This document shows, in pieces, positions 13,958 through 50,508 of a stretch of 64,000 bases of DNA (the stretch's first letter is position 1; every line of letters starts with the position of its first letter). Origin of the DNA: Hormiphora californensis (taxonomy: Eukaryota > Animalia > Ctenophora); assembly GCA_020137815.1 (NCBI GenBank), contig CM035351.1, positions 62,001 through 126,000 of the forward strand, in the 5' to 3' direction. Both the position numbers and the translations under genes were made by a program. Below the pieces are notes generated by a model. It did no database searches. It was not told the DNA's origin and was given only the letters and a program-made list of their open reading frames with translations.

Positions 13958-16046
<2,089 letters not shown>

Positions 16047-28029: not shown

Positions 28030-31000
28030 GAGGACAATGTGTGTTTTGTATAATGGGGGGGGGGTAAATAAATATCTTTTACTAGTAGTCTCTAGGGGTA
28101 TTTGTAACAATGGAGGGAATATAAAAAAAATAATGGTTTCCATAAAAGGGGGCCGGGGTGTGGGGTTAAAATGAAATACTATTCTTACTAGTTTTTTGAT
28201 TTTTGGGGTGTCGGAAGTTACAAAGCTGGTCCGTTTAGGGGAAGCTGGGGGGATTTGGCCCCCGGGGAAAATGCCCATTTTGGGGGAAATGGGCCCAGTT
28301 ATTATGTGGGGCACTACTTTTTCTCCCGGGGACCTGCTCTTCTGTTTCCGGTTTTTTTTCAAAACTGCTGTAAATTTTGTTTGAGTTGGGCCCATTTTAA
28401 TTTTGGGAAAAAAAAATCCATTAGGTTTTTTATCCTTTTAAATCTTTTAAAAAAATTTTTTTTTTTAAAAAAACTCATTTAATTTGATTAAATTGTCAAT
28501 TTTTTTGAATCGGGCATTGGCCCACCTCCGGGCAAAATGGTCCCCGGGCTGGGGCAAAGTGGCCCCCTCTTTGGAAATGTGGGGGCCTCAATACCCCGTG
28601 ACATTGAAAAAGGGGCCCATGTAGTCCAGACGGTCAAATTGGGGAAAATGGCCCATTTTCCGGTGCAGAACATGGCCCCTTTCCCCCTATTTGATCGTTT
28701 CGCTAAAAACACCAGGCACGTAAAAAAAACGAGCAATGCTTTGGCTTGGGGCCCATTTGCCCGTGAAAATTTTCCAAAAAAAACGCCTCACCAATTTATT
28801 TAAATTGATTAATTAACCCATTAAATAAAATTTCAGTTTTTAAAAAATTAGCTCGGCAAAAAGAAAACGTCCATTGTACCCTTTATTTTTTTCTTCCTCT
28901 GTATATATTGCGTTTTTGAAACCCCAAAAATTAAAAAAGGGCCCCTTTTACCCCAGCTTACCCCATTTTTATTACTGCTACTGTTTTTTTCAGGGGTTTT
29001 TTCCTCAAAACTCATGTTTACGAAGGGTCCCCCTTTCCCTCGGAGTCTAGGAAAAATCATTTTCCCAGCATTTTTGGGTTCTCTCCGGGGCCATCATTTC
29101 CCCCCCCGCCACAAGAGGCAAAGTAGCCCCTTACGTGAAGTCTCCTGAAAATGAAAAACCCGGGAAAAAAGACGAAACAAGGAAAAGCGAAAAAATGATG
29201 GAAACATGTCAAGAAAAAAAGGGTGATGAAAAACCCTCCTGCCCAAATTAAAACCCAAAAAAGGGGAACATTTTCCGCTCCTTGACAAATTTTCAATTTT
29301 TTTTTCCCAACAAAGGTTTTAAAATTTTGGAAAAAATGGGAAAGGGGCAAAATTTTTTACCACCCCCTGATGTAGAAAAAACAAAAAGTGGGGAACAATG
29401 AACAAAGAGGGGGCAGCAAAAAAACTAATGTAAGTCCCTTCCCTGTTAAAATATGCAAAACTGGAGGCCCATTGGAAGTGCAAAAAAATCAAAATGCCAT
29501 CTGTACATGGGGAGAAGTAGGAAAAATCCCCCCCCCCCCACTGAAAAAATGTCCCCCCCACAAACCATCAGGGGTCTATAAGGGCCACGGCCCCCCTTTT
29601 TTTCCTCGGGAACCCCTAACAGCTCGATGGGAGCCCTCTCCCACGCCCCCCAAAAAAAAGGACGGAAGGCGAATTTTCAGAACCCTCTTGTTGTGCCCAA
29701 AGGCGCTCCAAAAATTACACACAGCTTCCGAATTTTTGCTGCAAAATGCTGGGAAAAAACCCACCTTCCTTGCCAACGCCAAAAAGAAAAAGCAATTGCT
29801 GAAGGGTGGGTTTTCTGGAAAAATTTTCCCCTTTTATTTATCACTGAGACCATTTAACTAAACTTTTTTTTGATGTAGAATTTTGAAATGGAAAAATTTT
29901 TGGGTTTTTTAGAGCTGACCGGTTTCGAAAAAACATGGGGGTGTGGGTATATACGTGGAAACACCCAGCTGACTCCCCAAAAAGTGTTTTCCCTCATCTT
30001 TGTGAACTCCTGGGGCTGATTGTTCACAAATGTTCATGATCGGGATTTCCGCCCACCACTTCCTTTTCTCACCAAAAGATGCTGTCCCCCGGAACCTTCG
30101 GAACTGTCTCACGCTTAAAAAAGTTTATGGGAGAATAAACCCCAAAAAACGGATCATATCCGGTGACCTTTAAACTCCTTTGTGAAAGGGGAAATCCCAG
30201 AAGTAACACCCGGCCTCAATGTACTTGTGTCTAAGAGTGCCCGGGAAATCACATTAGTTAATGAATTCTCTGTTCTTTTCACCAGTTGTGAAAGAGCCCA
30301 CCGAAAAAGGAAAATAACTCGATGTAATCCTAACCCAACAAAGAGAATATGATTCACGCATGAAGTAAAAGCCACTACCCTCTCAGTCATACCCCTTTTG
30401 TCCCCTTCTGTTGCCAGAAAAATTCCCGCTCAATGGAAGAAGAAAGGGGCCCTTGCAAAGGGCGGGCTTCACCCCAAAACCCTTTTTCACTCCGGTAGAA
30501 CAAGCTCGGGGGCAATATCCGGGCGGGAGCTCCGAGTCTGATGGTCTAAGTACTTTCAGCCCCCGACAAGATCTTGCTGGGCATGTTTTCGACATTTTCG
30601 CAAATGTTGTGCAAAAAACCCCCCAAAAACACAAGACAAAATCCCGAGGTAAAAACATACCCAGGGAAAGACGTATCCTCCTACGGAAAAGAAAAAAGTG
30701 CTACCAAAGGATAAAAAGGGGCCCCCAAAAAGAAACCAAANNNNNNNNNNNNNNNNNNNNNNNNNNNNNNNNNNNNNNNNNNNNNNNNNNNNNNNNNNNN
30801 NNNNNNNNNNNNNNNNNNNNNNNNNNNNNNNNNNNNNNNNGTGTCTCTCCACTACGAATGCCCCCCATTCCGGGTCGGATTCAGGCAAATTTACGTCGGT
30901 ATGGCAATTATTGGGATGACCACTGTTAAAAACGATAAAAAACCGAAGTTTTTAGAGGGGGAAGAAAACAGCCCCGTTTTTATGAAATTTGGGTCAGAAA

Positions 31001-32428
31001 GTGTTTGGTGAAAAAAAAATTTAGTCCCAAACTCCTAAATTTACGATTTTTGGGTTTTTTTTGGGTTTTGGGGGGTTTTTGGGGGTTTTTTCAGAACGTC
31101 CTAGAAAAAAATGAAAAAACCCACTTTCTTAGCGTGAAATTCTGTATCGTTTTAGTGGCAAAAACCTTCTATACAAAGTTTACCCAAAACGGCTCTGTTT
31201 GGGGGGGGGTACTGTTTGGGCTAACGGACGAACCTCTTGTAAAAAAACCCATGTTTAGGATAAATCGACGTATAGGGGGTGAAATCTTTTTAGTAAACCT
31301 TTTTGATCTGCATTCTGTGTAACAAAATAAACCAAAAAAACCCTTACCACATAATCTACCCTTGGGTTTTTTGGGAAACCTTTTAAACCTTCGACACGCT
31401 AAAAAGGGTTTACAGCCCATGATCGATGCAAATTTCACCCGAAAAATATTCTATTTATTTTGTTCTAGGACTTTTCCTAAAACCCCCATAAAACCAAAAA
31501 AAACCCAAAAAACCTAAAAAACCTAAATTTAGGTTTTGAGCACCCCCAAAACATTTTGACTTCTAATTAGACATCAAAGCCATTCTGACTGATTTTTTCA
31601 TCAAAAATCCTATTTTCACTTTAAAACCTTCTTTATTAAAACAACTCAAAATTTCCGGGGTTCGCTTAGGGGTAAGGGCCACCCTAAAATGAGGCTTATC
31701 ACCCCCAACACTAGGGGTATTGGTTGGAATCGATAGAGGGACTTAGAAAAAATATTAAGGGGGTTGAAAACACCTTTTTATTTAATAATAGTGTAAATTC
31801 GTTTTAATTAATGTCCTTTAAAGTTTTTTAAATTTTTTTAAAATGCCCTTTAAAGCCCGGGGACTTTAAAGTCACATTTATTTAGGACGATTTAATTCAC
31901 GCGGGCCCCCCCCCCCACCCCCCACTCCCCCCATGGGGCCTAAGGTCCCACCGGGTTAATCCCCCCACCCGCCCTTTTTTGGATCTGGGGGCCCGGGGGC
32001 CTGCGGATAAGGAGGTAAACAATTTACTGGGGTAATTGAACAATGTACTAGGGGTTAAAGTAAGGGAAAACATTTAAAAGGGGAGTTAAAGCTCATGGTG
32101 GCGGAGCATAAGACCCCTAACTATCTGGGAAAAAACCCCCCGGGGTGAAAACAAAAGGGGAAAAGGAAAAAATGGAATCAGGGGAAAAGGGGGAAAAGGG
32201 AAAAAAAAAAAATTTTAAAAAAGGGGGGAAAAAAAATTCATTGGAATTTTTTTCTCCTCTCTCTCTCCCTCTTCCCCTCCTCCTCCCCCTCCCCCTCCCC
32301 TCCCCCCTCTCTCCCCCCCTCCCCTCCCCGCCTTCCTCCCCTTTTTTCCCCCCCGACGGGGACCCTCCCTTTTCCGGTTCCCCCCCATTTTTCCCCTTTT
32401 GGGGGGCCCCCCCGGGGGGGGGAAAAAA

Positions 32429-32461
<33 letters not shown>

Positions 32462-35400
32462 GGGGGGGGGCCCCCCCGGGGGGGGGGCTTTCCCCCTTCC
32501 CCTCTCCCCGGGTTTTTTTCCGGGGGGGCCCCTTTTAAATGTGGGTTTTGGGGTTTTTTGGGGGAAAAAACAAAAAGGGGGGGGGTTGACCCGGTTTCCC
32601 CCCCCAAAAATTTTTCTCCCCGGGGGCCCCCTCCTTTTCCCGGAGGGGGGGGGGAAAAAAAGGGAAAAAAGGGCCTTGGGCCCCCCTTTTTTCTTTTCCT
32701 TTTTCCCCTTTTTTTCCCCCTTTTTTTTCTCTCCCTTTTTTGGGGCCCCCCCCTTCCCCCCCCGGGGGGTCTAATTTTAAAAAGGGGGGGAAAAAAATTA
32801 CCTGGGAAGGGGGGATAATGAAAGGGAAAAAAGAAAAAGGGGGGAGTTTTAAAAAAAAAGATAAGGTCCCTCCCCTGGGCCTTCCCCTCTCCCTTTTTCA
32901 ACCCTTTTCCCACCCGGGGGGAAAAAAAGGGGTTTAAAAAAAGGGAGAGGGTTTGGCCCCCCGGGGGGGGTTTTTTGGGGGGGGGGGGGTCCGGGGGGGG
33001 GCCCCCCCCCTTTTTTGGGGAAAATTTTTAAGGGAAGGATTATCCCATTTTTTTTTTTAAAAAGGGAAAAATTCCCTAAAAAACAGTGGGTTGCTTTTAA
33101 AAAATTCCCCAAAATAATACACCAAACAGTGCTGGAATGGATGGGGGTGATTCGTGCCGGGATGAAGTAGAAAAAATAGCTACCCGGGTGACTGGGGTGT
33201 TTAAATACCTGAGGCCATAAATGCCTTTGGGGAGTATGTTTGTAAGGAACCTATCAAGGGATATAACTCTAACAAGTTTTATAGTTTTGTTGTTTGGGGG
33301 AAATCTTCTACCTTTCCCCCTTTTTCAACAAAAATTTCTACCCTAATATGATTTCACCACTTTTTGGGGGAAAAATGCTAAATATGCTACCAGGAAAATC
33401 AGTGGAAGAAATCTGGGGGGGGCAAAAAAATAGATATCTCTGTCCCTCTACTATTGGATATTGGGGTGATGGGTTGGATAGGGGAAATTTTTTATCAAAA
33501 CAAATTATTATTGTATCTTTTGGCCAGTTAGACAACAAATACAATTCCACGTACAATTACTGCGGCTATACTGTCCTTATTCAGATCTGTAAACTGTCCC
33601 TCTTAAAATTAATAAGTTAAAAAAAGTAATCAAGTAAAATCAAAAAATCAGTTAAGAAGTAATCATAACCACACAACTGAATAACCACACAACTGGCACA
33701 AGACCAGATCGAAAGATCCCCGTCAAATATCCAATTACATTAATTTAAACGGCCTACTCGTCTTTTTTTTACCGAAATAAAAAATATTCTAAAGAAGGTT
33801 CAAATGGCTCTTTGGGGCCCAAACCACCTTTCAAAGACCCCCCCCCCCCCCCCCGCCCTTTGGGGCGCCGTCACCTCTCTGCTACCGGGCTTTTGTTTTT
33901 GGGGGCCTAAACGCCGAGTTTAAGGGGGGGCTGCGTCAAACCCCGGCCCCCACAGTCTAACACACACCATTTTCCCATCAGCCTCTACTCTTATAGGACA
34001 CGGGAGAAGAGAGAGGAGAAAAGGGGACCCCGCTATAATAAGATGGTAATTAGGTGACACCGATTGACATTATTAAAATCCACAAACATTATATGCAATA
34101 AAGTATGTTGATGAAGGAGAAAATAATAACATATAGCGACAGTGGTAAAAACACACTGCTAATACATCAAACGGGTGGCACACTGAGGATTCTCTCTCTC
34201 CATTGTTCTTTCTAGTATATGTTGTTGTGTATAAAACTCATTTGCTAATGAATAGTATTCACAATACAATATGTAGGGGGAAGCTGCAAAGAAGTGTGAA
34301 CCATACATCTATAATACCAGTCATTATCAGGCTACCACACTGCAACGATTGGACTCGGACCAAATGATAGCGGGTTACTATAATTGGAATATAAGGTCCA
34401 GGGGGAGGCCTCTATTGCAGCACTGGTGGTGCGTGTCTACCTATAATAATGAGAAGGTAATATACTGGCGGTGTATATCAAAGAAAGTGTGGCCCCGTGG
34501 TGATGGAAAGAAGGGAGAGTGGATAGAAGGGAGAGAGTGAAAAGAAGAGAGGGAGAGTTATAATAGAGACGTGGTAGAGAGAGATCAGAGAGGGAACTAT
34601 AATGTTACAGAAATGAATAGAACATAGAAAGCACCACCTGATAGCTGTATTATTATTGTATAACTACATTATTATACTACAACATTATACTGGGCACTAC
34701 AGGACAGAAGACGGGCTAAAAGTGAAGGCTTGTTCAGACTGTTTTGCGTTTTAACAATGCCGTCGAACTCATGATGATGAATCATCGTAAAACTACTTGA
34801 ATTTGTGGTGTATTGCCTTCGAAAGAGATAAACAGAGTCATAGCCGGCTGATCCTAGGTAATAGAAAACTATCAAGGGTGGATAAGAACTGTAAATCATC
34901 GGGGAGAGAGAAAGGGAGAGAGAAAGAGAGAGAGAGAGAGAGCGACGAAGAAAAAAGAGAGACGAGTAAGGAGATAAGAAAGGAAAAGAGACAGGAGGCC
35001 GGATAGGAAGGCACGTGCCCCTTTGAAAAGCCCGGGGGCCCGGGCGGGCTCGAGCCGGTGTGCGCCGTCAAGGGGGGTTTTTTGGGGTTTTATGCTTCTT
35101 TGGGGAACTTGGATTCTAAGAGCGAAAGGGACCTGGGACGTGTGTCAGAGAGATATTAGTTGGGGGTATGAGGAAGTACCCCATTCGGGATGGGGCTTTT
35201 AGATTTAGATAGGTTCGAGAGATCAAAAAATGAGTCGAGGGGATGTGGTGAAGAACACTTCACAGGTGGGATAAAACGGTTTGGGGGGGGGGGAAAAAAG
35301 GAGGGGGGGGAAAAAGGCCCAACCAAAAAAAATTTAAAACCGGGGGGGAAAAGGGGGGGGGAAAAAGGGGGGTTCCCCCCCCAAAAACCCCCCCCCCCCC

Positions 35401-36728
35401 GGGGGGGGAAAAGAACCGGTTTTCCCGAAAAAAGGGGGGGGTTTTTTTTGGGGGGGGGGGGGGCCCCCCCCCCCGGGGGGGGTTTTTTTTTTTTTCCCCC
35501 CGGGCCCCGGGGGGGAAGGGGGGGGGGGGGGGAAAAAAAAAAAAGGGGGGGGGGGGGGCCGGGGGGGAAGGGGTTTTTGGGGGGGGGGGTTGGGGGGGGG
35601 GGGGTTTAATTGGGGAAAGGGGGGGGGGGGGGGGGGAGGGGGGGTTTTTGGGGGGTTAAAACGGGGGGGGGGGGGGGAAAAAAAGGGGGGGGGGGGGGGG
35701 GAAGGGGGGGGGGGGGGGGGAAAAGGGGGGAAAGGGGGGGGGGGGGAGGGGGGGGGGGGGGGGGGGAAAAAAAAGGGGGGGGAAAGGGGGTTTTTAAAAT
35801 TTTTAATTTTTGGTTTTTTTGGGGGGGGGGGGGGCCCCCCGGTTGGGGGGGGGGGGAAAAAAGGGGGGTTTAAAAATTTGGGGGGGGTTTGGGGGGGGGG
35901 GGGGGTTTTAAAAAATTGGGGTTTTTTAAAAAAAAAGGGGGGGGGGGTTTTTTAAAAAAAAGGGGAGGGGGCCCCGGGTTTTTTTTTTGGGGGGGGGAAA
36001 AAAAAAGGGGGTTTTTGGGCTTTTTTTTAAAAGGGGGAAAGGAAAAAAAAAAATTTTTTTGGGGTTTTCCTTTTCGGGGGGCCAATTTTTTTTTCCCCCC
36101 CCCCCCCAAAAAATTTGGGTCCGGGAAAAAAACCTAATTAAAAAAATTTTTAAAAGGGGAAAAAAAAAGGGGGGGTTTTTTTAAAAAGGGGGAAGGGGGG
36201 GGAAAAAGGGGGGGGGGAAATTAAAAAAAAGGGGGGGGGTTTTTTTTAAAAGGGTTTAAAAATTTGGGGGGTTTTTTTTTTTAAAAAAAAAAATTTTTAA
36301 AATTTTTTTTAAAAAAAAAATTTAAAAAAAAAAAATTTTAAAATTTTAATTTTTTTCCCAAACCCAAAAAAATTTTTTTTTAAAACCCATTTCCGGGTTT
36401 CCCAAACCCAAAAAAAATTTTGGGGGGTTCCCCCCAACCCCGGGGGGTTTTCCCCCAAATTTTTTTTAAGGGTTTGGCCCCAACCTTTTTTTCCCTTCCG
36501 GGGGGGGGTTTTGGGGTTTTTTTTAAAAAACCCCCCAAAATTTCTGTTTTTTTTTTTTGGGGGGGAAAAAAAAAAAAAAAAAATTTTTTTAAAAAAAAAA
36601 TTTTTTTAAAAACCCCCCCCAAAAAAAAAAAAAAAAAACCCAAAAAAAAAAAAAAAAAACCAAAAAAAAAAACAAAAAAAAAAAAGGGGGGGGGGGGGGG
36701 TTTGGGGGGGGGGGGGGGGGGGGCCCCC

Positions 36729-36765
<37 letters not shown>

Positions 36766-36845
36766 TTGGGGGGGGTTTTTTGGGGGGGGGGGGGGGGGGG
36801 GGAAAAAAAAAAAAAAACCCAAAAAAAAAAAAAAAAAAACCCCAA
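28030..36845. other. Low-quality, homopolymer-inflated sequence around a scaffold gap (100 N at 30741-30840); not interpretable
   Basis: Long runs of G/C/A/T with no codon or splice structure, worst at 32150-33110 and 35280-36845; typical of untrimmed read ends. Confidence 0.85.
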
Positions 36846-37245
36846 ATTCATACCAACAGGTGGTCCGGGATATAATACTAATTATAAAATGCGTTATGAA
36901 CATGAAATTCTCCCTAGAAAAAGAGAGGAGCCAGGTCGTGGTGGAAATGAAAAAGAAAGGGAGAGGTTGGAGTGGGAATTGTGGTGAAGGGAACTGGAAA
37001 GTTCCATGGAAAGTTTCCTGCGGTTCGAATAAATCTAATAACTCGATAGTTACGGGGTTTCGCGAAAAAATGTTAACATTCTGATAAACACAATTATAAT
37101 ATATTAATATTGCAGATTACCAATAGCGTCTATAAATATAACGGTTTAAAAATCCACTTATCTTGTCTCTCACATTACAATCCTATTATATCTGTTAGAG
37201 TCGGACCCGGATTTACCGGGTCTGACTATATCTCAACAAGTGCAA

Positions 37246-40200
37246 TTAACGAGTGCAAACCTCGACCCTGCGAAGTGGTGTCCCCTGACCGGGTCTGCCG
37301 GGGAGGTGTCCAGTTATAGTGTTTGTGTTGAAATCAGCCCTCACCTCAATCCTCTGCTTTCCGTGTCTGTGGGATGTTATAAGGTCAATGATCGTAAACA
37401 TAAAGACGTGAAAAGTCTGACTAAATTCGGCATAAAATCAGAAATCCAGGGAAAATGCAGACAGCGGTTGAAAGACAGGCACATAACTTTGGGATTTAGG
37501 AGACAATATTATTTAGGAGTCACAGACGCAGGCAACATAACAAAATCTCACCTGCTAGAAAAACGGACCATGTGACGATCTCTGAAAAACGAAGACCAGT
37601 CGATTGGACTGTAGTCCCAAACAAGACATTTTAATACTACAGCTACTGTTATAGTACTCACGTTAGTTTGGAAGTCCTGACACCGCCAGTGGTCTGAATT
37701 TTAGAGGCTGGTTCCAGGAAACAACTGATGAATTCAGGGAGGGAGTGCCACAACCCCGTTCTCTGGTCACACCACTCCCAGGAGAACTCTCTAGCAGGGT
37801 CACGCAGCACGCTACTACAAGATAGATCAGACATAACGGACTGGAATGAAACTGTCTTGTGGATGAGCGGCTCCTGATCTGGCTTCGTACTGAATGAATG
37901 GGTGAGAGATGGGAGTGAGATGGGAGGGTGAGAGATGGGTGGTGAGATGGGTGGTGAGATGGGTGGTGAGATGGGTGGTGAGATGGGTGGTGAGATGGGT
38001 GGGTGAGATGGATGGTGAGATGAGTGTGAGATGGGTGGGTGAGATGGGTGGGTGAGATGGGTGGGTGAGAGATGGGTGGTGAGATGGGTGGTGGGATGGG
38101 AGGGTGAGATGGGAGTGAGATGGGTGAGTGAGATGTGTGGTGAGATGGGAGTGAGATGGGTGGTGAGATTGGTGGTGAGATGGGTGGTGAGATGGGTGGT
38201 GAGATGGGTGATGAGATGGGAGTGAGATGGGAGTGAGGTTGAAACATGTAGCTGGTTGAAGTGAGGGTGAGTAACAACTCAATGTAGCAGTGAGAGGGGT
38301 GGATCAAATAGAAGTACCTGTTCTGTAGAGCATTCTGCACACTAGGATGTCTCATAAAGGTCTTCTGCATTCTGTGATTATTGGAATCATACTTGACACT
38401 GTCTGAAGACACGTTCCTCCCTCGTGATGCCTGGAGAAATGTATAGGTGTTAGTTAATTGTGCAATGAGAGATATAGGTGCTAGTTAATTGTGCAATGAG
38501 AGATATAGGTGCTAGTTAATTGTGCAATGAGAGATATAGGTGCTAGTTAATTGTGCAATGCTATGTTCATCTATTGATAATAAGTTCCCTTCCTACACAC
38601 TTCACCCCACTACCCAGAGGGGGTTTTCCTCTGTTTCTCTAGTAGAAAGAATCTAACCACTCCTTTACCCACCTGCTCCCATATATTAAATTGGGTTTGA
38701 AAATATTACTCCCCAGGTGCAATATGGAGGGAGGGGCGGGGAGATATACGGAATTTTAACAGGGTTATTATAGTATTTAGTTACACACATTACCCCTCCC
38801 TAGACAGGGGTATCTTGTACCCTTCTACACGTCATATTGAACTTTACACTACACCTTTATAACTAATGCCACACAAGATCTCTGGTCACCGAATGACTTG
38901 TTACCGTCATCTATCATATTAAACTCTTCATCTCATGATCTAATACACGCCACCAACAAATAAAGATCCCTATCTAATTCTAACACATAGTCACATGGCG
39001 GTACTACCCCCCCCCCCCCCCCTCATGGTCATGACTCATTGTAAAGTTTCCAGGACACTTCCCAAAACAAAACATGAAATTCCAGACTGCGAATAAGGCT
39101 GGCAGTGGGTGCGCGCAGCACTGCTACTAACATCTTCTACTTTCATCTCTCACTAGGTCAATTACTATGGCCTGCGCGCCAAATACAAACTCCCCGCGGC
39201 ACAACTCCTGAAGTCTCCCACTCCATGGAGCTCCAGCCTCCAAGGTCTTTACTTGGTTCTGACTTCTAACAAAGCAGGTAGCAATGAGTTGCAGGCAGAA
39301 TGTCCTGACTCCCCCTCTAACAGCCCCCTATAAACTCACGGGTGTGTGTGGGACATGTCTGTGTCCCAGATGACTCTCAGAGATGTCCGGGGCAGTAGTA
39401 AACATCACACTGTTCTCAATCATTGTAGAATTAGACATGGGCGTAACGGCAGGGGTTTTGGGTGGTGGGGCTGGGGTGAAGAGTTGGTGAGGTTTCAGGT
39501 CAGGAGCAATGCATCGTCTAATAGGAAACTCTTCATTTATCTTGGGATCCACTAACACGAAACTGGGGGGAGGGGGATGAGAAATGTGGGGATTAGAAAT
39601 GAGGGGGTTAGAAACATATTGGGAAACTGGGAGGGGTGGAGGGAGGGCGAGAAACATATTGGGTAGGGCCAATTTTTGGCAAATTTCACAGTATCAGAAT
39701 AGGAGCAAGGAGGGGAGTATAACTGTATAACTAGAAATTTGTTTTGTTCAAACACAAAAGACGGTCTTATAGCTAGGCAACTAGAACTAAATACTCACTA
39801 TGGGTCAAAGTAGATCCAGTATGCTTGGTTATTGTATACAACAGTTACTCTAGTTTTACCCTCACTAAAGGCTCCCTCCATGATATCTATAGTATCGGGC
39901 TGGAAGCGGACCCAGACCGTATCACTTCCCTGGTGCTCCCATATAACACCACCTGTGGACGGGATAGTTTAGGGAGATATTGGATTAGATATTGGTTTAG
40001 ATATTGGGTATTGGATATTGGATATTGGATATGTTGGAACTTGGACACTGGACAGTGGACACTCTCAAAACCCATCAAATAGATGGGGGCGGGGGGGGGG
40101 GGGGGTGATATAACATGGTCAGTATTTATAGGATGCCCCCTCCTAACCTGATAAAGTTGCAGCCTTCTTGATGGTGGGTGGGGTAGGTGTGGAGGCTGCA

Positions 40201-43200
40201 TTGGGACTATTATCTACTGCACGTGTTGCAGGAGCAGCCCCTCTAGTAGAGACACCTGGGGATACCGTCCCTGCTGATCTTTGTATCCTCTGAACCTTTC
40301 TCTGTTTCCCAGTAGCTGTGTTTGTCTGTACTCTGCTCTTGGTGTTGACGCTGAACCTGCGGCGATATCTGCATGTTCAGTATTAGCATCATAGTGAACA
40401 ACAGTAGCGGGGGGGGGGGGGGGGAATAACATTCACATTGTAGAGAGGTGAAGAGAAAACTGAACCGGGGAAATATTACCAACACACACACACACACAAA
40501 CTGAAGCAGGAAGGGGCAGGGTACAGGAATGTTAAAGGGAGTATTACCTGGTATTGTCAATGTTAAGAATAACACAGGCAGTCCCATGTTGCAGGTAAGC
40601 AGTTTCTAGTTTACTGCTCTGCTCTGTTCCGTAGTCGCTCCATATATTGTCATCAGTCAGCCACTGCCACACTGGCACCTGCACCTGGTCAGAGAGAGAG
40701 TGGGTGTTAGAGGGGTAGTAGGTGGAGGGGGAGAGGATCTGTCAACCACTGCCACACCGGTACCTGCACCTGGACAGAGAGAGGGGGGTTAGAGGGTGTA
40801 CCTGCACCTAGAGAGACGGTGGGTTAGAGGGAGAGTGGGTTACTGTCAACCACTGCCACACCGGTACCTGCACCTGGAGGAAGAGAGGGGGGGTAAGAGG
40901 GGTAGTAGAGGGGGGTTAGAGGGCAGGTTAGAGGGAGATGGGGTTACTGGGTCAGCTGTGTGGAAGGGAGATCGGTTAGCTGGGTAGACACTGCACCTAC
41001 CTGTACAGTCACACTCTCTTCCCCCGCTGTTTCATATAACACCTACCTGTACAGTCACACTCTCTTCCCCCGCTGTTTCATATAATTTGTTGATTTCATC
41101 GACTGCAGGCATCCAGTTCCCAACGGGGCGGGATGCAGACCTCTTCACGATCTTGTCATAAACCAACTTGAACCTCCCTATCCTCCTGCTGGCTCCACTA
41201 GAGAGAGATTTAACTGTACAGGTCTGGAAGTCAACAAGGTATCCAGGATGGGCTGAATCCGCTCCTTTCATACTCATCCTGCTTTCACCACGCAGGTAGA
41301 TGGCATCAATAACTGGGGGGAGAATTAGAAATGTGAGGTAGGGGGGAGTGGAGAATTAGAAGAGTGTTGCTCCAGTGTTGCCATGGATACAATTAGTAGA
41401 GTTGTGTTTTCAGATTGTCCTGTAAACCACCCCCTGTTTAAAACCCCTGCTGTGTACCGGGAGGATTTGTTTTTAGCCCTACCTTCATTTTGTTTCGGAT
41501 CGTATGGGTACCAGTTATCGTTATCCCCCATCCAATGCCACATGAGAATGTCCTGACTAGAGGACATGACTTCTGGAGAGGGCAGATCGATCCAACCCGA
41601 GGGGAACACCCTGTTATAAACTGCCAACACCTCTTTAGATATTTCGTGAAATATCACATCACGTTCTATGGACATTATCACACGCTTTAACAAACCTAGA
41701 ACAAGAATGAAACAGATTTAGCTAACCTGAAACAGGAATGAAACAGTTCTTATATCACAGACCATTGGTTTTATGATCAGAAGTTTCCCAGTACTTACCG
41801 CTGTATTTCATAACTACACTTTGCAGTATTTGAGCGATCTGGCGGTGAGGTACCTTCCTCCCCTCTGTTAGATGCGGAGAGAGAACAAGACAGTCAACAC
41901 CCTGACTAGCAGCTCCAACGATTAGCAGGGCTATCTTCCTCTTTAGAAGGTGGGCTTCTTCTTTAGTTAGACTGGTACTATCTCTACCTTTCTTTAACTA
42001 AACGGGGGGGGGGGGGCAATTAGTTAGACTCGTACTATCTCTACCTTTCTTTAACTAGGAGAGGGGGGGGGGCAATTAGTGCAAGTAGCAAAAGAGCCAG
42101 ATAAAGTACATTGAGTAACAATTGAAACAGGGGAGATGGTATTGACTATAAAGTACCTTAGGTAGGGGAGTAACAGAGAAGACGTCAAATTACCTTAGGT
42201 AGGGGAGTAACAGAGAAGACGTCAAATTACCTTTGGTAAGGGAGTAACAGAGAAGACGTCGAGATGTTCAGGTTTCTGAAGGAGCATGTAGTTGCGTTGT
42301 TGAGATTCTCTGAACACAGCCACTCCACTGTTAATCTGAACCTCTGTAGGACCTAGCAAACCCAACTTGCCACTCCGCTTGTGGCTCTTTACAGCACTAA
42401 AACAGAGAGGGGAGTTACTACTGGTAGTGTGATACACAACTAATTGATTAATAATCACTCAATTTACAATTAGTCGCTAATTGCTCAGTGTCTCACACTA
42501 TAACTATATCTCCCTTCCCACTCACCCGTCTACATCGTCTACACAAGTGTAGTAGTTGCTACGTCGTATAAACTCTTCCAGCGGCCCAATACCCCCTGTC
42601 CTCCATTCTCCCCCGGGACTATCCGGGTGGGCGGGTACAAATACACCCGGCCGGTACCCACTCCTTTGCAGGTGGAGACACACCTAAATGATAGGGAGGG
42701 AGGCTGTTAGATATAAACTATATAGGGGAGGGAGGCTGTTAGATGGGGGGATGTTTGCTAGATTGTTGCACATATTGGACTATAGCAACTAATTCACCTG
42801 TATCGGGTCTGTATTAATGACATTGATCTCAGTGGACTTGTAACGTGGAAGGGGTGGCTCCTGAAGGACCCCCTTGTCCATTATAACATGTTTGGAGGTC
42901 TTATTGGGCAGGTGGACATGCCCCCCAGTGGTAGGTAGTGTATAATTCCCCCTCGTTACTGCCTCTCTGGTCCCCATCATAACACCCACTAACAGACTCC
43001 TCATCCTCTTTACCTGGTAACAAATAGAGTTCTGGAGTTCAGAGTTAGGAGATAATAGTGAGGGGACACACACGAGACAACAGTGTTGGTAATTTGGGAA
43101 GGTATTATAGGTCCATGGGAAGTATACCTTAGCATTAGCTTTATAGAACTCGAACCAGGTTCTCCATTGTTGGCTATCAACAGCGGACCAATCAGGTGAG

Positions 43201-43230
43201 TTCTGGTCTAACAAGACATTCTCCCAGCAC
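37246..43230 (-). CDS. Multi-exon gene: microbial-type PARG-like (DUF2263/TIGR02452-like) macrodomain followed by four WWE domains
   Basis: STEINVINTDPIQ|VCLHLQRSGYRPGVFVPAHPDSPGGEWRTGGIGPLEEFIRRSNYY, SGVAVFRES..LLQKPEHLDVFSV, LLKRKIALLIVGAASQGVDCLVL. WWEs: MWHWMGDNDNWYPYD (~41530), VWQWLTDDNIWSDY..RFSVNTKSRVQTNTATGKQRKVQR (~40680-40290), VIWEHQGSDTVWVRF..YWIYFDP (~39950-39800), FSWEWCDQRTGLWHSL..ADFNTNT..LRRV (~37790-37250). The links between 39800 and 38430 are not fully resolved. Confidence 0.75.
37897..38237. repeat. Intronic (GAGATGGGTGGT)n-like minisatellite
   Basis: Direct reading. Confidence 0.9.
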
Positions 43231-43345
43231 CTAGGAAGTTAGTATGAACTAATTGAGAAACAGTACCTGTATTAGGAAGTTATAATGAACTAATTGAGAA
43301 ACGGAGCATGCAACTAAATTACTTTTATCTAATCGACCCACTCAC

Positions 43346-45499
43346 CCCCTGCCCTGGTGCCCCAGCAACACCAGACACTAACCGTTCGAAGTCCTCCTGG
43401 ATTGGTGGTCGTCTGGTGGCCCTCTTGTTGCTATCTGTGAAGCTATAGAACTGTGTCTGATCAGCTCCAGGTGCTGTTAGGTCTGCATCCTCCCAGACAC
43501 TGCTATCTTTAGTGGAGTACCGACACCACCTCAACTCAGCTGTGTGAAGTGGGTTAAATTTCGGGTCTGAGACTCTCAGTTTGTTCAGACACTCAGACTG
43601 AGAGTCTGAACAAATCAACTTTGGAAAACTTTGGAAACACAAATTGATCAATATCTAGTTGGGACTGATCAACACCAGTAAAACAGCTCCAGCAACAGAT
43701 AACCTGTCAACTTGTAACTTGTAACTTGTCAACTCCTTACCAGATGTTGCTGCGGGAATGTTGTGGATAGAGGGAGGGAGGGCAGGCGGAGAGTTCACCC
43801 TGACATTAGCATTGGTTCTCTGAAACAAGGTAGTAAATCAGACAGATATACAATCAGACTTAACTACTAGATCTTGTTCCCAACAATTAACACCCAAACA
43901 AACAAACAAACAAACAAACAAACAAACAAACAAACAAACAAACAAACAACCAAACAAACAAACAAACACCCAAACAAACAAACAAACAAACAAACAAACA
44001 ACCAAACAAACAAACACCCAAACAAACCAAACAACACTCAACACCTCGTGTGTGAACCTACCAAGGGTGTGAACCTAGAGGGTGTCATTGCAGTTCCAGT
44101 GTTAACAACATCTCTCCTCTGGTGGGTGACCTGATAAACGGGTGCTACCTCCTCCTCTACAGTAGGGGTATATTGCTCCCTAACTACTGTACAATATTCC
44201 TGCTCATAGGAGGGCTCAGCAACAACTACCGGTGAGGGTTGCTTGGTGGGAGGGGAGCGGGGAGGGGGTTCGTGGTAGACAGAGGAACAATCTGTATAGG
44301 CCGTCTCATCGATCACTGGAGGAACGGGAGGGGGTTAGAACTAGGAGCAACAAGGGGGATGTTGTTAGAACTAGGAGCAACAATAGTAGATTATAGATAG
44401 TTCAAATCTTGACATTAACCTCTTCACTTATGAAACTAAGCGGTATAAGAATAAGTCTAAAGTCGTTACTTACAGTATTCCCCGGTTAGATGGTTAAATG
44501 TGTCATTAGTTTTGTGTTGTTCCTCGGTGTTGGGAGAGATACAGGAAATATCCTCCAGCGGCGTTTTTAGGGACATGTCGTATAGTGTCTGAGAGGTGGT
44601 GAGGGGTGAGAAGGGGTAGTGAGACAGGGTCGAACATTGCAAGGTGGTAGTTATTAGTCAACTCAGACCTTACTACATAACAACAAGAGGGGGGCAACTA
44701 AAAACAGGAAACGAGCTCAGTATACAGTAGTATACACCAAAAGAAAGGATTAACTGCAACCAAGGGCATGTACAAGGGGGGGGGGAGGGGGCACCGCAGT
44801 AACCCACCAGCAGGAAATGCACTAATATAGTACACATATATATTCAATAGTACAATATTACCACAGGCACCACTTCCAACTGTGTGTGGGCCCAACAAAG
44901 GTAGCTTTGAACAAGAACAGCTATAGCCATGATTAGGACTGACCTACTACTAATTATTAGTTAATTAATTACCTTTGTAGGACTGGTATCGTGCACGTTA
45001 TCTCCCTCTTCCTCTTCTCTCAGGGCCTCTGTGGTACTAACGAACATCCCTTCTCCACCCCCACCTCATATAGAAATATACCGGAATATTATATTGCGTT
45101 TATGTGTGTGTCTGTAACTTGTGTAAACACTCGTGGAAAGACACATAGGAAAGACATACTAAGGCACATTTTATATGCAGTGTGGTGAATTATTGAATTA
45201 CAACATTAAGAAATGTGTAAATTTACTACTAATATAACATATGTCCGGTAGTTACCTATTGTTTCATCTAAACTACTACTAATATAACATGTCTACACTA
45301 CACTAATATAACGAATAACATGTCCCGGGACTGTACCTATTGTTTCATCGGCCTCCTCCTCCTCCTGATCCTTAGTAGGGGTATATCTACCAGGAGTGAA
45401 GGCCTGGGTCATAGCAGTATCGTTTAGATTAGGAGGGATACTTTTAAATGTATCATCTTCTATTGCAGTCATCTCCTTTGTATCTACAGGACTTTCATT
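43346..45499 (-). CDS. Exons of unknown function (acidic and Tyr/Pro-rich), probably the 5' part of the PARG-like/WWE gene
   Basis: Open GT-AG exons, e.g. 45499-45338, ~45064-44973, ~44316-44062 (YHEPPPRSPP..YEQEY), ~43819-43741, ~43607-43346; mostly phase-compatible. Confidence 0.55.
43895..44035. repeat. (AAAC)n microsatellite
   Basis: Direct reading. Confidence 0.95.
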
Positions 45500-45850
45500 C
45501 TTGGAGGGGAAAACAGGGTAGTTGGTAGAGTATTGAGAGAATGGAAGGGGAGATCCAGGAGTGTTGTTATATTGGGATAGTTGGTAGATGGGAGTGTTGG
45601 GAGAATTGGAGGAGTGTTATATTGGGATAAAATAGTAGTGGCATTGAGTGTGTGTGTCAGTGCAAGTGTGGGTACATGTAAGAGTTATACTCCGGTGGCT
45701 GAACAGATCAATGCGCAATGAAACAATAAAGTGAAACAATGAAATGAAATAATGAATACAACTGTATTTAGATCAACTGTACAACAAGTACAACACATAA
45801 AACATGATAAATGAGGGACTGGTGAGGGATGATAACCAAGGAAACAAGAG

Positions 45851-48800
45851 TTATGTGAGAGATGAGTACACACTCTCTACCTCAATTTTCTTTTTTCCTC
45901 CTCCTACTGCAGCACCCTTCTTCCCCTTCTTCCCTCTCTTGCCACCCTGAGCCTGCAATTTCTCCGATTTTATCTGAAACAAAGAGATGATATCATTTTG
46001 ACACACGGTACCACTTAAGTTACAAATCAAGTAACCGGAGTAACTGCATGGAGAACTTACAAAAATCTTCCCGAAGTCAGCTCCTTCATAACGAAGTGGT
46101 TTTGTGTAGTTGGTGCTGTCAACTAATTCCTCCAGGGTGCACTGCATCTCTCCCAAGAAATCTGCCTTGGTAATGTCATCATTGTAATCATCTATATCCC
46201 AGACTTTGAAAATCAGCTCCTGCTCTTCAAATGGGTCATAATCCAGTGTTATAGTTTCCTTGAATTTGGGATTTAGCTCGTTATCGATACACTCTGTTCG
46301 GCCCAGCTGGATAGGAAGAAGGTGGTTAGTAACTTCTTGATTCAAGTTTCCACTGGTTACTAACCCCTCTTATCTTCCCCTTATTGATTGTTGCATGTCA
46401 TAGGGGAGGAGGCACATAGGTCCGATGCTGAGTAATGACAGAACACCTAGGGGTGGATAACCACGAGTCCTAAAAAGACTGGCTGTATTTTATGTACGGT
46501 GGCAAACGTGGGCTAAAGTGTGTAGTGAACCACTGAACATGCACCACTCTGCCTTCTATAGGCTTAGTGGAACAAACCAGTTGTAAATTATGCACTCAGA
46601 GTCCTTCAGTTCAACTCCCATTTTATGTTGTCCTGGCTAACTCTAGAGAGATCCAAATTCCTTGCTAGTGACTCATGTTACTACGGCCACAAATTCGTTA
46701 TAAAATCTCTTCTACCCAGCGCCAGCTGGAAGTGTAGTAGAGTCGGTTCGCCGCCTTTATTTCTAATGCTATGATTGTCTTGTCTGTGGAGTCACGCCTG
46801 CAGACGTAAATGCAGTGAAAGAAAAATAATGATGGAAAGTTTTTATAAGGATATTAGCCAAACGTTCATTGGAACTCTAAACTGTCGTACCTTACGTACA
46901 GTCGAACGGCAAGAGGAGCTGGCTTATAAGTTCTGCAATAGCAAACTTGGTGTACTCGCAATTCAAGAACATCGGATAGTGCATGCACCGGGTGAGGTTA
47001 TACGCATTACTCCGGCTGGGTCAGACTGCATCCTCTTAACATCTACAGCCGAGAGAAACCAGAGAGGGGCTTCAGTGGGGGGCGTGGGGATCGCCATGAG
47101 GGCGGCGGCGTGGAAGCTGATTACGGAGAAGGAGGTTGTTTCACCTCGCATCCTAAAGGTTACGTTTGCAGGAAACCCTCGTTTCACTGTAGTCTCTGTG
47201 TATTCACCAACTGAGGGCTACAGCAGAGATGAAGTAGAGAAGTTTCACCATGACCTAAGGGATTGTATAAACACTATCCCTGCCCACAATCTAGTGGTCG
47301 TGGCGGGAGATTTCAATGCGAAACTCGGCTGGTCGGATTCCCCCTCAGGATGGTACTACCACAAGAGCACTAGCCCTAATGGACTCTGTCTGAAGGAGAC
47401 TCTACGAGAGGCGAATATGGAGGTTGCTAATGTACGTTTTCAGAAACGGAAATGCCGCCTCTGGACACACCTTTCGGACGGTACTCTCAGTAAATCCACC
47501 AAGGACTATATACTAGTGCGTAGGAAATGGCGGAACAGTATCAAGGACGCCGATGTGTCTGAGATATTTAGTTCTCTCGGATCGGACCATAGGGCGGTCA
47601 CTGTTAAACTGAAGCTAACACTGCGGAAACGTAAAACACCCCCGGGGAGGACCTCTTACTGCTACGAAGAGCTGAAATCTAGCCCAGAACTGCAGGAGAG
47701 GTTCTCTGTGGAGGTGCATAACCGCTTCGCAGTGTTAGATTCAGCCATAGAAAACAGGGAAGATGCGACCGAGCGATATGGATGTCTAGTTGAAGCTGTT
47801 GGGCAGACGAGCAAAGCCCTACTGGGGAAGAAGCGAAAGAGGATCAGAGACGTGGTGGCTGATGATTTCAGGGTTAAACGAGCAAGGGAAAATGTGGAGA
47901 CTGCAAGCCAGCAGTACCATTCTGCCCCATCTGAGGAAACCTTGGATAGAATCGGAACCGCGAAGGAGGACTTACAGAATGCGTACCAAAATGTGCACTC
48001 TGAAATTCTGGAGAACAAGATTAGTAAGGTTGAGGTTGCTACTAAGCACGCCAAGACCAGGGAAAGCTGGAGGTTGATCAACGAAATTTCGGGACGACAC
48101 CAGCGAGAGCAAAGTCAGATTGAGGGTGACTCAGCCGATGATAGAGTTGAGATATGGTACAACCATTTCAAGACCCTACTTGGGACACAGGCTGAATCGA
48201 CTGATGGAGATCTGGAAATTCCGGAGATTCACCCTCCTGGCCCAATCGAAGTTGGCCCCTTTACCCGAGACGAGCTGAAGTCAGCGAAGTCTAGACTGAA
48301 GGAAGCCAAGGCGTTTGGGGATGACTCAATCCCTCCAGAAGTACTAAAGAGATGCGATGTAGATGACATTGTACTGGAGTTCTGTAACGGAGCACTAAAT
48401 GGGGAAGGAGTTCCGGATCAGTGGCGTGTAAGCAACCTGATCCCAGTCCCAAAAAAGGGCGACCTTTCAAAACCCGGAAACTACCGTGGGATAGCTCTGA
48501 CTTCGATTGTAGCTAAAACGCTAAATCGGATGATCCTCCACAGAATTAGGCCCCATGTGGAAACTCTGCTCAGTGATAATCAGAACGGGTTCAGGGAAGG
48601 CCGATCCACTACTAATCATGTTCTCACTTTGAGGCGGATTCTTGAAGGTGCGAGGGCAAAGAACCTTCCTGTTGCGATGGTATTTATAGATTTCTGTAAA
48701 GCCTTCGACAGCATCAACAGGAAATCTTTGATGAAGATTCTCAGAGCGTATGGGATCCCAGCACGGATAGTGGACCTTATATCTTGGCTCTACACAAACA

Positions 48801-50014
48801 CAAGGGCAAAGGTCATTACCGCTGATGGAGAATCTGCTCTCTTTGAAATTGTTGCCGGGGTGTTACAGGGCGATACGCTCGCACCCTATTTGTTCATAAT
48901 AGCACTGGACTACTGCATCAGTACGGCACTCTCGAGGCACCCGGAGATTGGTTTCACCATCCAACCAGCACGGGGTACCAGATCTCGACCGATTGAGGCT
49001 CAACGGGTATCGGATACGGAGTTTGCTGACGATCTAGCGCTCCTTGCCGACTCTACTGAACAACTTGGAACTCTGCTCAAGGAGGTGGAAACCGTGTGTG
49101 GCCAAATTGGCCTCCGTTGTAACCTTGGTAAGACAGAATTCCTGACAGAGGGCATCGATAACCCAGGGCAGTTAACATCTCTGTCGGGAGAGAGCATCAA
49201 GAGGGTACAGGACTTCAAGTATCTTGGTAGTTGGATCGCGGACTCCACCCGGGACATTAACACCAGAAAGGCTAAAGCATGGGTGGCATGTCATAAACTC
49301 AAGAAGATCTGGAACTCGAGTCTTAAAGATGAGCTAAAGGTCCGATTGTTTGTGGCATGTGTAGAATCTGTTCTGCTGTACGGCTGTGAGACTTGGACTC
49401 TTACTAGGGACCAAGAGCGTAGTCTAAACGGCACCTACACTCGAATGCTCAGGATGGCACTGAATAAAAACCAGTATCTCCTGAGGATGACCAACTGCGA
49501 GCTGTATGGAGACCTACCGATTCTCAGCACCAAAATAGCAGAGAGACGCCTGAGACATGCTGGCCACGCGTTTAGACACCCAGAGCTAACACTTCACTCA
49601 GTATTGTTATGGGAACCCTCCCACGGTAAAACGAAAAGAGGGAGACCAAACCTTACATTCGTGGACACCATACGAAGAGATACTGGAGTGAAGAGCGTAG
49701 CAGAGATATCCTCAATGATGGCTGGCCGAGATCCTTGGCGAAAACTGACCTACAGCGTTCGAGAATACCACTCGCCTTAAGTCAAGTAAGTCAAGTGGTT
49801 ACTTGGAGACATTTTCAAATAACACGAATCAAGGAGTTGTTTGGTGGTCCTCATCGTTCCACCCTGTCTCACCCCCCCTCCTAAGTTTAAAGGAGGGTTA
49901 GAAAGTTATTACCTCATTATTGAAGGTGTCGAAAACAGTACAGAGAGGATCAGACTTGGAGAATACGTCAGCATCCCTTAGTCCGGTACAAGAAATCGTC
50001 AATTTGACCTTCAT
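45851..50014 (-). CDS. Copine-type C2 domain protein; exons 50014-49913, ~46306-46061, ~45973-45851 (or spliced at 45882)
   Basis: MKVKLTISCTGLRDADVFSKSDPLCTVF..|LGRTECIDNELNPKFKETITLDY..LIFKVWDIDD..DFLGEMQCTLEELV, then a Lys/Gly-rich tail. No second C2 or vWA domain is seen. Confidence 0.8.
46362..49795 (+). mobile_element. Full-length RTE-clade non-LTR retrotransposon, antisense in intron 1 of the C2 gene
   Basis: TSD TGGTTACT at 46354-46361 and 49796-49803; single APE-RT ORF; 3' tail (TAAGTCAAG)x2 directly after the stop. Confidence 0.92.
46775..49780 (+). CDS. RTE ORF, APE endonuclease plus RT (likely ATG ~46829)
   Basis: IGTLNCRTL, IQEHR, AGDFNAKLG, SDHRAV; NYRGIAL, FIDFCKAFDSI, GVLQGDTLAPYLF, EFADDLALL, FKYLGS, VLLYGCETWTL, KRGRP. 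Confidence 0.96.
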   Translation: MSCLWSHACRRKCSERKIMMESFYKDISQTFIGTLNCRTLRTVERQEELAYKFCNSKLGVLAIQEHRIVHAPGEVIRITPAGSDCILLTSTAERNQRGASVGGVGIAMRAAAWKLITEKEVVSPRILKVTFAGNPRFTVVSVYSPTEGYSRDEVEKFHHDLRDCINTIPAHNLVVVAGDFNAKLGWSDSPSGWYYHKSTSPNGLCLKETLREANMEVANVRFQKRKCRLWTHLSDGTLSKSTKDYILVRRKWRNSIKDADVSEIFSSLGSDHRAVTVKLKLTLRKRKTPPGRTSYCYEELKSSPELQERFSVEVHNRFAVLDSAIENREDATERYGCLVEAVGQTSKALLGKKRKRIRDVVADDFRVKRARENVETASQQYHSAPSEETLDRIGTAKEDLQNAYQNVHSEILENKISKVEVATKHAKTRESWRLINEISGRHQREQSQIEGDSADDRVEIWYNHFKTLLGTQAESTDGDLEIPEIHPPGPIEVGPFTRDELKSAKSRLKEAKAFGDDSIPPEVLKRCDVDDIVLEFCNGALNGEGVPDQWRVSNLIPVPKKGDLSKPGNYRGIALTSIVAKTLNRMILHRIRPHVETLLSDNQNGFREGRSTTNHVLTLRRILEGARAKNLPVAMVFIDFCKAFDSINRKSLMKILRAYGIPARIVDLISWLYTNTRAKVITADGESALFEIVAGVLQGDTLAPYLFIIALDYCISTALSRHPEIGFTIQPARGTRSRPIEAQRVSDTEFADDLALLADSTEQLGTLLKEVETVCGQIGLRCNLGKTEFLTEGIDNPGQLTSLSGESIKRVQDFKYLGSWIADSTRDINTRKAKAWVACHKLKKIWNSSLKDELKVRLFVACVESVLLYGCETWTLTRDQERSLNGTYTRMLRMALNKNQYLLRMTNCELYGDLPILSTKIAERRLRHAGHAFRHPELTLHSVLLWEPSHGKTKRGRPNLTFVDTIRRDTGVKSVAEISSMMAGRDPWRKLTYSVREYHSP

Positions 50015-50462: not shown

Positions 50463-50508
50463 TTAGGGTTAGGGCTAAAGTAGGGTTAGGGTTAGGGTTG
50501 GGGTTAGG
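50463..50508 (+). repeat. Short degenerate interstitial (TTAGGG)n
   Basis: ttagggttagggctaaagtagggttagggttagggttggggttagg. Confidence 0.75.

Follow-up and report, generated by a model that had tools for sequence, protein, structure and literature searches.

Introduction

Microbial-type poly(ADP-ribose) glycohydrolases (mPARGs) carry two signature glutamates, both of which are essential and the first of which activates water, and a GVFG phenylalanine that restrains the diphosphate (PMC4030884; here and below, statements taken from a cited paper refer to the available part of its text). In the D. radiodurans enzyme (DrPARG), the pyrophosphate is contacted by main-chain NH groups of Gln110, Gly224, Gly226, Val227 and Phe228 (PMC6445106). 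Bacterial-type PARG has been reported from every supergroup of eukaryotes apart from Plantae, including Monosiga, with the signature altered in Naegleria and the Adineta PARG bearing PBZ repeats, and, in the available part of the same paper, from none of the tabulated animals, among which ctenophores were not sampled (PMC4245714). ADP-binding WWE domains contact the adenine with a Gln and the phosphate with a Tyr and an Arg, next to a Trp or Tyr that stacks, and of the WWE pair of ZAP only the second binds (PMC8853533, PMC11269756). Copine C2 domains bind calcium and acidic lipids through aspartates (PMC12167975). The present analysis concerns a gene of the ctenophore Hormiphora californensis in which an mPARG-derived domain with a rebuilt active site is joined to a C2 domain and an array of WWE domains. 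It lies in a stretch of 64,000 nucleotides, hereafter the window (GenBank assembly GCA_020137815.1, contig CM035351.1, positions 62,001 to 126,000 of the forward strand), and all coordinates are counted from the first letter of that stretch.

Gene model and orthologue

Coding exons were first spotted by three-frame translation of the minus strand. The final model runs from 50014 to 37246 on that strand and comprises 23 exons with 1278 codons and a stop in one open frame, GT-AG borders at 22 of 22 introns, and a median intron length of 233 bases.

37246..50014, minus strand: whole gene model, C2 domain, linker, mPARG-derived domain, three WWE domains and a WWE-like repeat, collinear with Mnemiopsis P0002 (tblastn)
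Exons 1-5, minus strand: 50014-49913, 46306-46061, 45973-45881, 45499-45337, 45028-44973
Exons 6-10, minus strand: 44588-44474, 44315-44062, 43819-43741, 43605-43383, 43230-43128
Exons 11-15, minus strand: 43013-42798, 42683-42526, 42396-42231, 41997-41799, 41695-41483
Exons 16-20, minus strand: 41312-41047, 40684-40548, 40356-40148, 39952-39799, 39562-39340
Exons 21-23, minus strand: 38430-38318, 37889-37662, 37366-37246

The ends of linker exons 5 and 7 are less sure, having no tblastn support. In the first version of the model, the donor of exon 7 was wrong and was ruled out by reading phase, and the donor of exon 9, the acceptor of exon 18 and a 30-base microexon (37581-37552) were ruled out by alignment to Mnemiopsis. 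A preliminary description of the locus had given the interval 37246..43230, which corresponds to exons 10-23; the gene starts 6.8 kb further upstream, and the C2 domain missed in this way shapes the mechanism considered below. The fusion of PARG-like and WWE sequences put forward in that description is confirmed by exon 15 (41695-41483), which encodes, in a single frame, both the PARG-like domain's final helix and the opening strands of WWE1 and thus makes the fusion independent of gene prediction. The gene is likewise, as had been stated, rich in introns and of an animal: it sits in the host genome with spliceosomal introns, has a Mnemiopsis orthologue and is surrounded by ordinary eukaryotic neighbours.

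When the exon 10-11 stretch was used as query, the only protein matched among 58 candidates was Mnemiopsis leidyi ACHWQZ_G010974, a hypothetical protein of 1302 amino acids with precomputed C2, PF10021 and WWE labels and four annotated isoforms (KAL5255578-KAL5255581), encoded on a 20.9 Mb contig. The window model and this orthologue align end to end and collinearly, with identities of 81% in the C2 domain, 51% in the linker (aligned columns), 67% in the mPARG-derived domain, and 80, 75, 65 and 77% in repeats 1-4. A representative search gave 412 matches at E <= 0.001, and among the best 150 of these 412 there were 17 short pieces of high identity, each equivalent to a single exon of the gene, with 36-98% identity to the two full ctenophore proteins and with similarity ending at the same exon boundaries as in the window gene. 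We infer that these pieces come from further ctenophores; since they share exon ends, the gene and several of its introns would be older than these species. The mPARG-derived domain itself is spread over six exons with five internal introns, and its exon ends are common to the orthologous fragments.

Homologue searches by shared words returned the Mnemiopsis protein only, a weak blank given that the same method missed long rotifer proteins. A metagenome scan yielded three loci from 600 pattern matches, none of which matched P0001 or the mPARG profile, and a plasmid tblastn search yielded one chance match.

Two peculiarities of the introns were noted. Intron 10 (43127-43014) is 114 bases long, in frame and free of stops, so that its retention would add 38 residues to the N-terminal helix of the PARG-like domain. 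Several introns (42230-42150, 42060-41998, 41046-41000, 40880-40685 and 45336-45250) contain tandem copies of the adjoining exon end with its splice site; these copies yield duplicate donors or acceptors and may reveal how introns grow in this genome.

The mPARG-derived domain and its active site

The domain and the elements discussed in this section are as follows.

41580..43230, minus strand: mPARG (DUF2263/PF10021)-derived domain, exons 10-15, 67% identical to Mnemiopsis
43137..43181, minus strand: N-terminal helix of the domain, of a type shared with eukaryote-type mPARGs
42558..42614, minus strand: rebuilt catalytic loop, aligned without gaps to bacterial mPARGs
41857..41880, minus strand: rebuilt diphosphate-binding loop SPHLTEGR, replacing GAWGCGVF

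A macrodomain of the DUF2263/TIGR02452 type had been proposed, and this assignment holds. The Mnemiopsis orthologue reached 30.7 bits against PF10021, above the cut-off of 23.5, and the window exon alone 18.2 bits (E=0.0033), below it; TIGR02452 matched the orthologue at E=1.1e-6 with 28.4 bits, below its cut-off of 50. By ESM features PF10021 was named in 29 of 30 matches, with a top score of 0.94. An AlphaFold (AF2) model of the Mnemiopsis domain (pLDDT 83) was matched to T. curvata PARG 3SIH with a Foldseek E of 8e-16 and a VIA Z of 31.0 (rmsd 2.2, 261 residues aligned, 17% identity), a result not independent of the mostly bacterial alignment from which the model was made, and to canonical PARGs with a VIA Z of about 15, well under that value. 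The predicted fold, with which the ESM features agree, is that of a PARG-like macrodomain with an N-terminal helical extension; residues 454-475, which cover the region of this helix, are identical in the window and in Mnemiopsis.

For the active site, the bacterial reference was taken from a motif scan that gave 120 loci and 71 complete proteins. Conservation of the catalytic motif in this set is by construction, and the diphosphate loop serves as its independent measure of conservation. The signature stretch (42614-42558) and SPHLTEGR (41880-41857) were both located on the minus strand. In the catalytic loop, Gln is replaced by Pro584 and the first Glu by Leu585, the second Glu is kept as Glu586 (42578-42576), and the third Gly is replaced by Glu576, so that GGG-x6-8-QEE reads GGE...PLE; in DrPARG numbering, Gly102 becomes Glu, Gln110 becomes Pro584, Glu111 becomes Leu585, and Glu112 is retained as Glu586. 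The altered signature had already been noticed, and the register is now set with PLE in the place of QEE, by which the second catalytic Glu is retained. This register was adopted because P0012 has Asp after Glu586, as DrPARG has Asp113; the alternative in which LEE takes the place of QEE needs two gaps, and its last Glu varies to Asp in P0012.

The pattern G[AG]xG[CT]Gx[FY] is kept in 70 of the 71 bacterial sequences, and the ctenophore domain reads SPHLTEGRK in place of GxxGCGVFG. Both loops are also well kept among the longer relatives not picked by motif, namely Gln in 119/131, the first Glu in 129/131, the second Glu in 124/131, and the GxG loop in 122/134. The bacterial set has 72 columns with conservation of 75% or more, and 18 of these are kept in both ctenophores. 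At the positions that contact the pyrophosphate in DrPARG, the ctenophore proteins have Pro, which offers no NH, Leu, Glu, Gly and Arg; the first signature Glu is Leu, and the GVFG position reads EGRK. Hydrolysis of poly(ADP-ribose) (PAR) is predicted to be lost because the water-activating Glu is gone and the GxxGCGVF loop is replaced. The domain is regarded as derived from the active mPARG family and is not counted as a member of it, because its two defining motifs were looked for and neither is present.

In the two rebuilt loops the window and Mnemiopsis agree at 19/19 and 7/7 positions (26/26), against 161/259 (62%) in the rest of the domain, a contrast with a probability of about 4e-6 if sites were independent, and these loops recur in the exon-sized fragments P0012, P0017, P0024 and P0066. 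Since the loops are identical across species, the site is conserved and not decaying, and the word 'degenerate', which had been applied to the domain, is misleading. On the sequences compared, the active site is one that was rebuilt once and conserved thereafter.

WWE array

Four WWE domains had been reported; three are found by Pfam and the fourth is tentative.

41170..41543, minus strand: WWE1, pocket Trp, Tyr and Arg present, adenine-binding Gln replaced by Val (PF02825 E=0.0043, first exon)
40287..40672, minus strand: WWE2, Trp892, Gln940 and Arg949 present, Tyr replaced by Phe931 (PF02825 E=6.2e-8 and 0.042, two exons)
39514..39944, minus strand: WWE3, fold-level match, pocket residues mostly replaced (PF02825 E=1.6e-5)
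37261..37783, minus strand: fourth WWE-like repeat, tentative, pocket Gln and Arg absent, 77% identical to Mnemiopsis

In the Mnemiopsis orthologue PF02825 was matched in three stretches with E=9e-33. The fourth repeat has no Pfam match in the window exons or in the orthologue, and against a profile of repeats 1-3 it scored -1.4, a value reached by 288 of 1000 shuffles. Its ESM features (0.85, with all of the 10 best family matches lying in the WWE clan) provide a lead only.

The pocket residues, placed by spacing and Pfam positions, number three of four in WWE1 (without Gln), three of four in WWE2, one of four in WWE3 and one of four in the fourth repeat, and are the same in both species. The earlier suggestion that PAR is read through four WWE domains was thus too strong, as WWE2 alone keeps the pocket set, with Phe for the Tyr, and it is WWE2 that we infer to be the best candidate ADP-ribose reader. 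In searches of the PDB, WWE2 and WWE1 matched DTX1 and TRIP12 by sequence, and results with single WWE exons were weak or empty.

C2 domain, basic patch and linker

The part of the gene upstream of the mPARG-derived domain contains three elements.

46061..50014, minus strand: copine-C2A-like C2 domain in exons 50014-49913 and 46306-46061, 81% identical to Mnemiopsis (PF00168 E=5.1e-11)
45917..45940, minus strand: polybasic Lys/Gly patch directly after the C2 domain, in both species
43383..45499, minus strand: acidic, Pro/Thr-rich linker, exons 4-9, 51% identity over aligned columns (fragments P0020, P0022, P0079)

The best PDB match of the orthologue's C2 domain was C2A of the copine BONZAI1 (6KXK), with E=1.5e-12. 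A pattern of five aspartates is the calcium-loop signature of C2 domains, and in the alignment aspartates are present at these positions, as placed by this pattern. Neither a vWA domain nor a second C2 domain was found by Pfam in the orthologue. The C-terminal end of the linker (43534-43383) is a Trp/Tyr-containing segment kept in Mnemiopsis and in P0020, P0022 and P0079; in these three fragments the segment continues into exon 10 without intron 9 of the window gene.

Relatives and origin

The nearest full-length relatives, among the best 150 of the 412 matches, are 24-33% identical. When 20 relatives were looked up, six had an organism name, all of them eukaryotes (Ceratiomyxa, Ploeotia, Entosiphon, Diphylleia, Gamsiella and Adineta steineri, comprising an amoebozoan, euglenids, CRuMs, a fungus and a bdelloid rotifer), and one more had an MMETSP member. 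The N-terminal helix motif was found in 45 of 86 long relatives with room for it, in 111 of 2000 random windows and in none of 71 bacterial proteins, which had been cut close to their probable starts; this distribution points to the eukaryote-type branch and not to a direct bacterial donor.

Trees of 156 and 42 rows were built with a quick tree search. In these, the ctenophore pair is long-branched and falls within neither the GTDB bacterial clade nor the rotifer-like one, joining P0100/P0144 in the 156-row tree and the Gamsiella pair in the 42-row tree; both were flagged as long-branch joins, and the partners are themselves altered sequences that shift with sampling. By the approximately unbiased (AU) test, a clade with the GTDB bacterial set (p=0.148) and one with the rotifer-like rows (p=0.293) were not rejected; a clade with P0084/P0152 was the sole placement rejected (p=0.0019).

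The preliminary description had suggested horizontal acquisition; the relatives are of eukaryote type, and the trees do not separate transfer from vertical inheritance. Transfer from a microbial eukaryote is our tentative first choice, still short of an even chance, and vertical descent, plausible because an mPARG is reported from the choanoflagellate Monosiga (PMC4245714), is rated only slightly lower; direct transfer from bacteria appears unlikely. A survey of horizontal gene transfer (HGT) in Mnemiopsis (PMC6005172) makes no mention of PARG, DUF2263 or WWE in the available part of its text or in one supplement.

Two observations on the relatives stand apart from this question. Altered signatures also occur in other eukaryote-type mPARGs (P0043, P0045, P0100, P0102, P0103 and P0144, with euglenids, Diphylleia and Gamsiella among them), and the Entosiphon mPARG has in addition a weak dynein-stalk-like match.

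Among longer relatives with an mPARG domain, neither WWE nor C2 was found by Pfam in the 64 scanned of 133; the same 64 included 12 with a PBZ match (some weak) and two with NADAR. The earlier view of a pseudo-hydrolase or reader with an unrecognised architecture is supported by this absence and by the rebuilding of both ADP-ribose-contacting loops.

Proposed function and alternatives

We lean towards the view that the protein is a calcium-recruited adaptor that reads ADP-ribosylated targets without erasing them. When calcium rises, the protein would dock on acidic membranes by means of its copine-type C2 domain, together with the basic patch that follows it. WWE2, to judge from its residues, would then bind mono- or poly-ADP-ribosylated proteins by their terminal ADP unit, in the manner of ZAP, in which a single WWE of the tandem pair has the pocket, and the remaining repeats would be structural or protein-binding. 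The mPARG-derived domain, in which the substitutions are evident and their effect is predicted, would no longer cut PAR, and its rebuilt, conserved cleft together with the N-terminal helix would offer a surface on which a partner or a ligand, though not the ribose-diphosphate of PAR, could bind. As to its history, the domain would descend from the eukaryote-type mPARG branch and would have been present with introns before the sampled orthologues split.

Several points weigh against this proposal. In the catalytic loop the proton-donor Glu, two glycines and Arg-x-Ser are kept and conserved, as in an enzyme. WWE2 has Phe at the position of the phosphate-binding Tyr, the adenine-binding Gln is absent from three of the four repeats, and ADP-ribose reading may accordingly be a minor activity; the pocket residues were mapped by spacing and Pfam positions and not by structure. 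Bacterial mPARGs made up 60 of the 65 rows of the AF2 input alignment. The link between the C2 domain and the remainder depends on the Mnemiopsis gene model and the collinear linker exons, and an older Mnemiopsis model (P0005) has no counterpart of exon 15 and no fourth repeat, stopping at the end of exon 21. This gap may be a prediction error or a real isoform, and is a sign of shared intron positions.

The retained Glu leads to the alternative that survives best, although we consider it improbable: the domain would be catalytic on another substrate through Glu586, such as a mono-ADP-ribosyl linkage, another nucleotide-sugar or a glycoside without diphosphate, and the C2 domain and WWE2 would bring it to ADP-ribosylated targets at membranes. 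The window, Mnemiopsis and P0012 all have Glu586, with the following residue varying between Glu and Asp as in active PARGs, both loops are strictly conserved, and the Arg of the new loop could bind a phosphate. However, the water-activating Glu is lost, Pro abolishes an NH contact to the pyrophosphate, a Glu occupies a phosphate-binding Gly position, and only 18 of the 72 columns conserved in bacteria are kept in both species.

The state of the WWE pockets bears on a further alternative, somewhat less probable again, that the protein is an ADP-ribose-independent scaffold in which the macrodomain and the WWE array bind proteins and the C2 domain provides calcium-dependent membrane targeting. 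WWE domains can bind proteins, as in the Deltex-Notch case, three of the four repeats are without the pocket Gln, WWE2 is without the Tyr, and both PARG loops are rebuilt, all of which would suit a scaffold. Yet the WWE2 of each species still has Trp, Gln and Arg, and the fusion of two kinds of ADP-ribose module would have to be a coincidence, while fusions of mPARG with the PBZ reader recur (12/64 of the scanned relatives, some weak).

That the mPARG-derived domain might itself be an ADP-ribose reader, binding without cutting and adding avidity to the WWE array, which is the reader option of the preliminary description, seems quite unlikely. The fold is predicted to be retained, with the reservation that the 3SIH match is not independent, and catalysis and binding are separable, as DrPARG E112A still binds ADP-ribose (PMC6445106); but it is mainly the means of binding, namely the diphosphate loop and the NH contact of the Gln, that is lost, and the catalytic Glu is kept, which is the reverse of a simple conversion to a reader. 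An artefact, contamination or a decaying pseudogene, which the poor assembly beside the gene might suggest (homopolymer-rich to about 36850, with an N gap at 30741-30840), is scarcely credible: the frame of 1278 codons is unbroken across 22 introns with GT-AG borders, Mnemiopsis has a collinear orthologue on a contig of 20.9 Mb with domains 65-81% identical, and orthologous fragments have the same exon ends.

Beyond the adaptor proposal, it is conceivable, as a speculation that we regard as improbable, that ctenophores made of an mPARG a membrane receptor or neo-enzyme that is triggered by calcium and has a rebuilt, invariant cleft for an ADP-ribose-related signal handled by no known macrodomain, the gene having been transferred long ago from a protist or else being of pre-animal age and kept by ctenophores only. 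If this were true, a pre-animal gene retained by ctenophores alone would be a gene-content marker for the root of the animals.

Neighbouring features of the window

Outside the coding sequence of the gene, the following features were recorded.

46775..49780, plus strand: intact long interspersed nuclear element (LINE) open reading frame (ORF) of 1001 codons (endonuclease, reverse transcriptase (RT) and DUF6451), in intron 1 and antisense to the gene
5648-10614, plus strand: second, two-ORF LINE, with a 630-codon ORF1 and a 1095-codon endonuclease-RT ORF
1897-2626, plus strand: tandem PDZ exons
13128-13526, minus strand: RAMA-domain exon
13961-16081, minus strand: double AAA ATPase

The LINE in intron 1 separates the two C2 exons and is not part of the protein; it ends in short tandem repeats, and 8 bases found at both 46354 and 49796 make a candidate target-site duplication, which could be due to chance. 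ORF1 of the second LINE is Cys/His-rich with internal repeats and has no Pfam match. A long homopolymer-rich, low-quality region from about 28000 to 36850, just downstream of the 3' end of the gene and including the N gap at 30741-30840, is probably an assembly artefact. A few CCCTAA telomere-like repeats are found at about 50460-50505, about 450 bases upstream of the start codon.

Comparison with known systems

The domains of the protein are all of known kinds; within the reach of our searches, their combination is new, and so is the frozen, rebuilt site. No published description of the C2-pseudo-PARG-WWE protein was found in the literature covered, to which the supplements of an HGT compendium that possibly list the gene (PMC13342648) did not belong, and no literature on ADP-ribosylation in ctenophores was found. 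The passage from an eraser to an adaptor or to a new substrate has a clean test case in an mPARG whose two substrate loops were first rebuilt and afterwards frozen, and the protein would couple recruitment by calcium and membrane to ADP-ribose reading in one chain. Ctenophores are a second animal lineage with an mPARG-derived domain, besides bdelloid rotifers, which raises the question of transfer from protists as against retention from an ancestor shared with choanoflagellates.

The closest counterpart is the Mnemiopsis orthologue, which has the same domain order, a similar full length and the same rebuilt loops, and which differs in a linker that is 51% identical and of different length; its annotation is hypothetical only. 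With the mPARGs of T. curvata (3SIG/3SIH) and D. radiodurans (5ZDA-5ZDG), the domain shares the profile match, the predicted fold and the second catalytic Glu in register, whereas QEE is changed to PLE and GGG to GGE, the GxxGCGVF loop is absent, an extra N-terminal helix is present, and the domain is internal in a protein of 1278 residues. The mPARGs of Ceratiomyxa, Ploeotia, Entosiphon, Diphylleia and Gamsiella and the mPARG-PBZ proteins of Adineta steineri share the N-terminal helix motif and RRSN after the signature, and several of them have altered signatures; most eukaryote-type mPARGs, unlike the ctenophore domain, keep QEE and GCG. In Adineta steineri, also an animal, an mPARG is likewise joined to a PAR reader, but there the reader is PBZ and the enzyme is apparently intact.

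The tandem-WWE readers Deltex1 (8R5N), the central domain of ZAP/PARP13 and TRIP12 (9BKR) resemble the WWE part of the protein, and in ZAP the pocket is likewise found in the second WWE only. They have one or two WWE repeats, whereas three or four are present here, and no RING, HECT, PARP or zinc-finger domain was detected in the orthologue by Pfam. Copines, represented by Arabidopsis BONZAI1 (6KXK), have a C2A domain like the C2 domain of this protein, but they combine two C2 domains with a vWA domain; with its single C2 domain and no vWA domain, the ctenophore protein is therefore not a copine.

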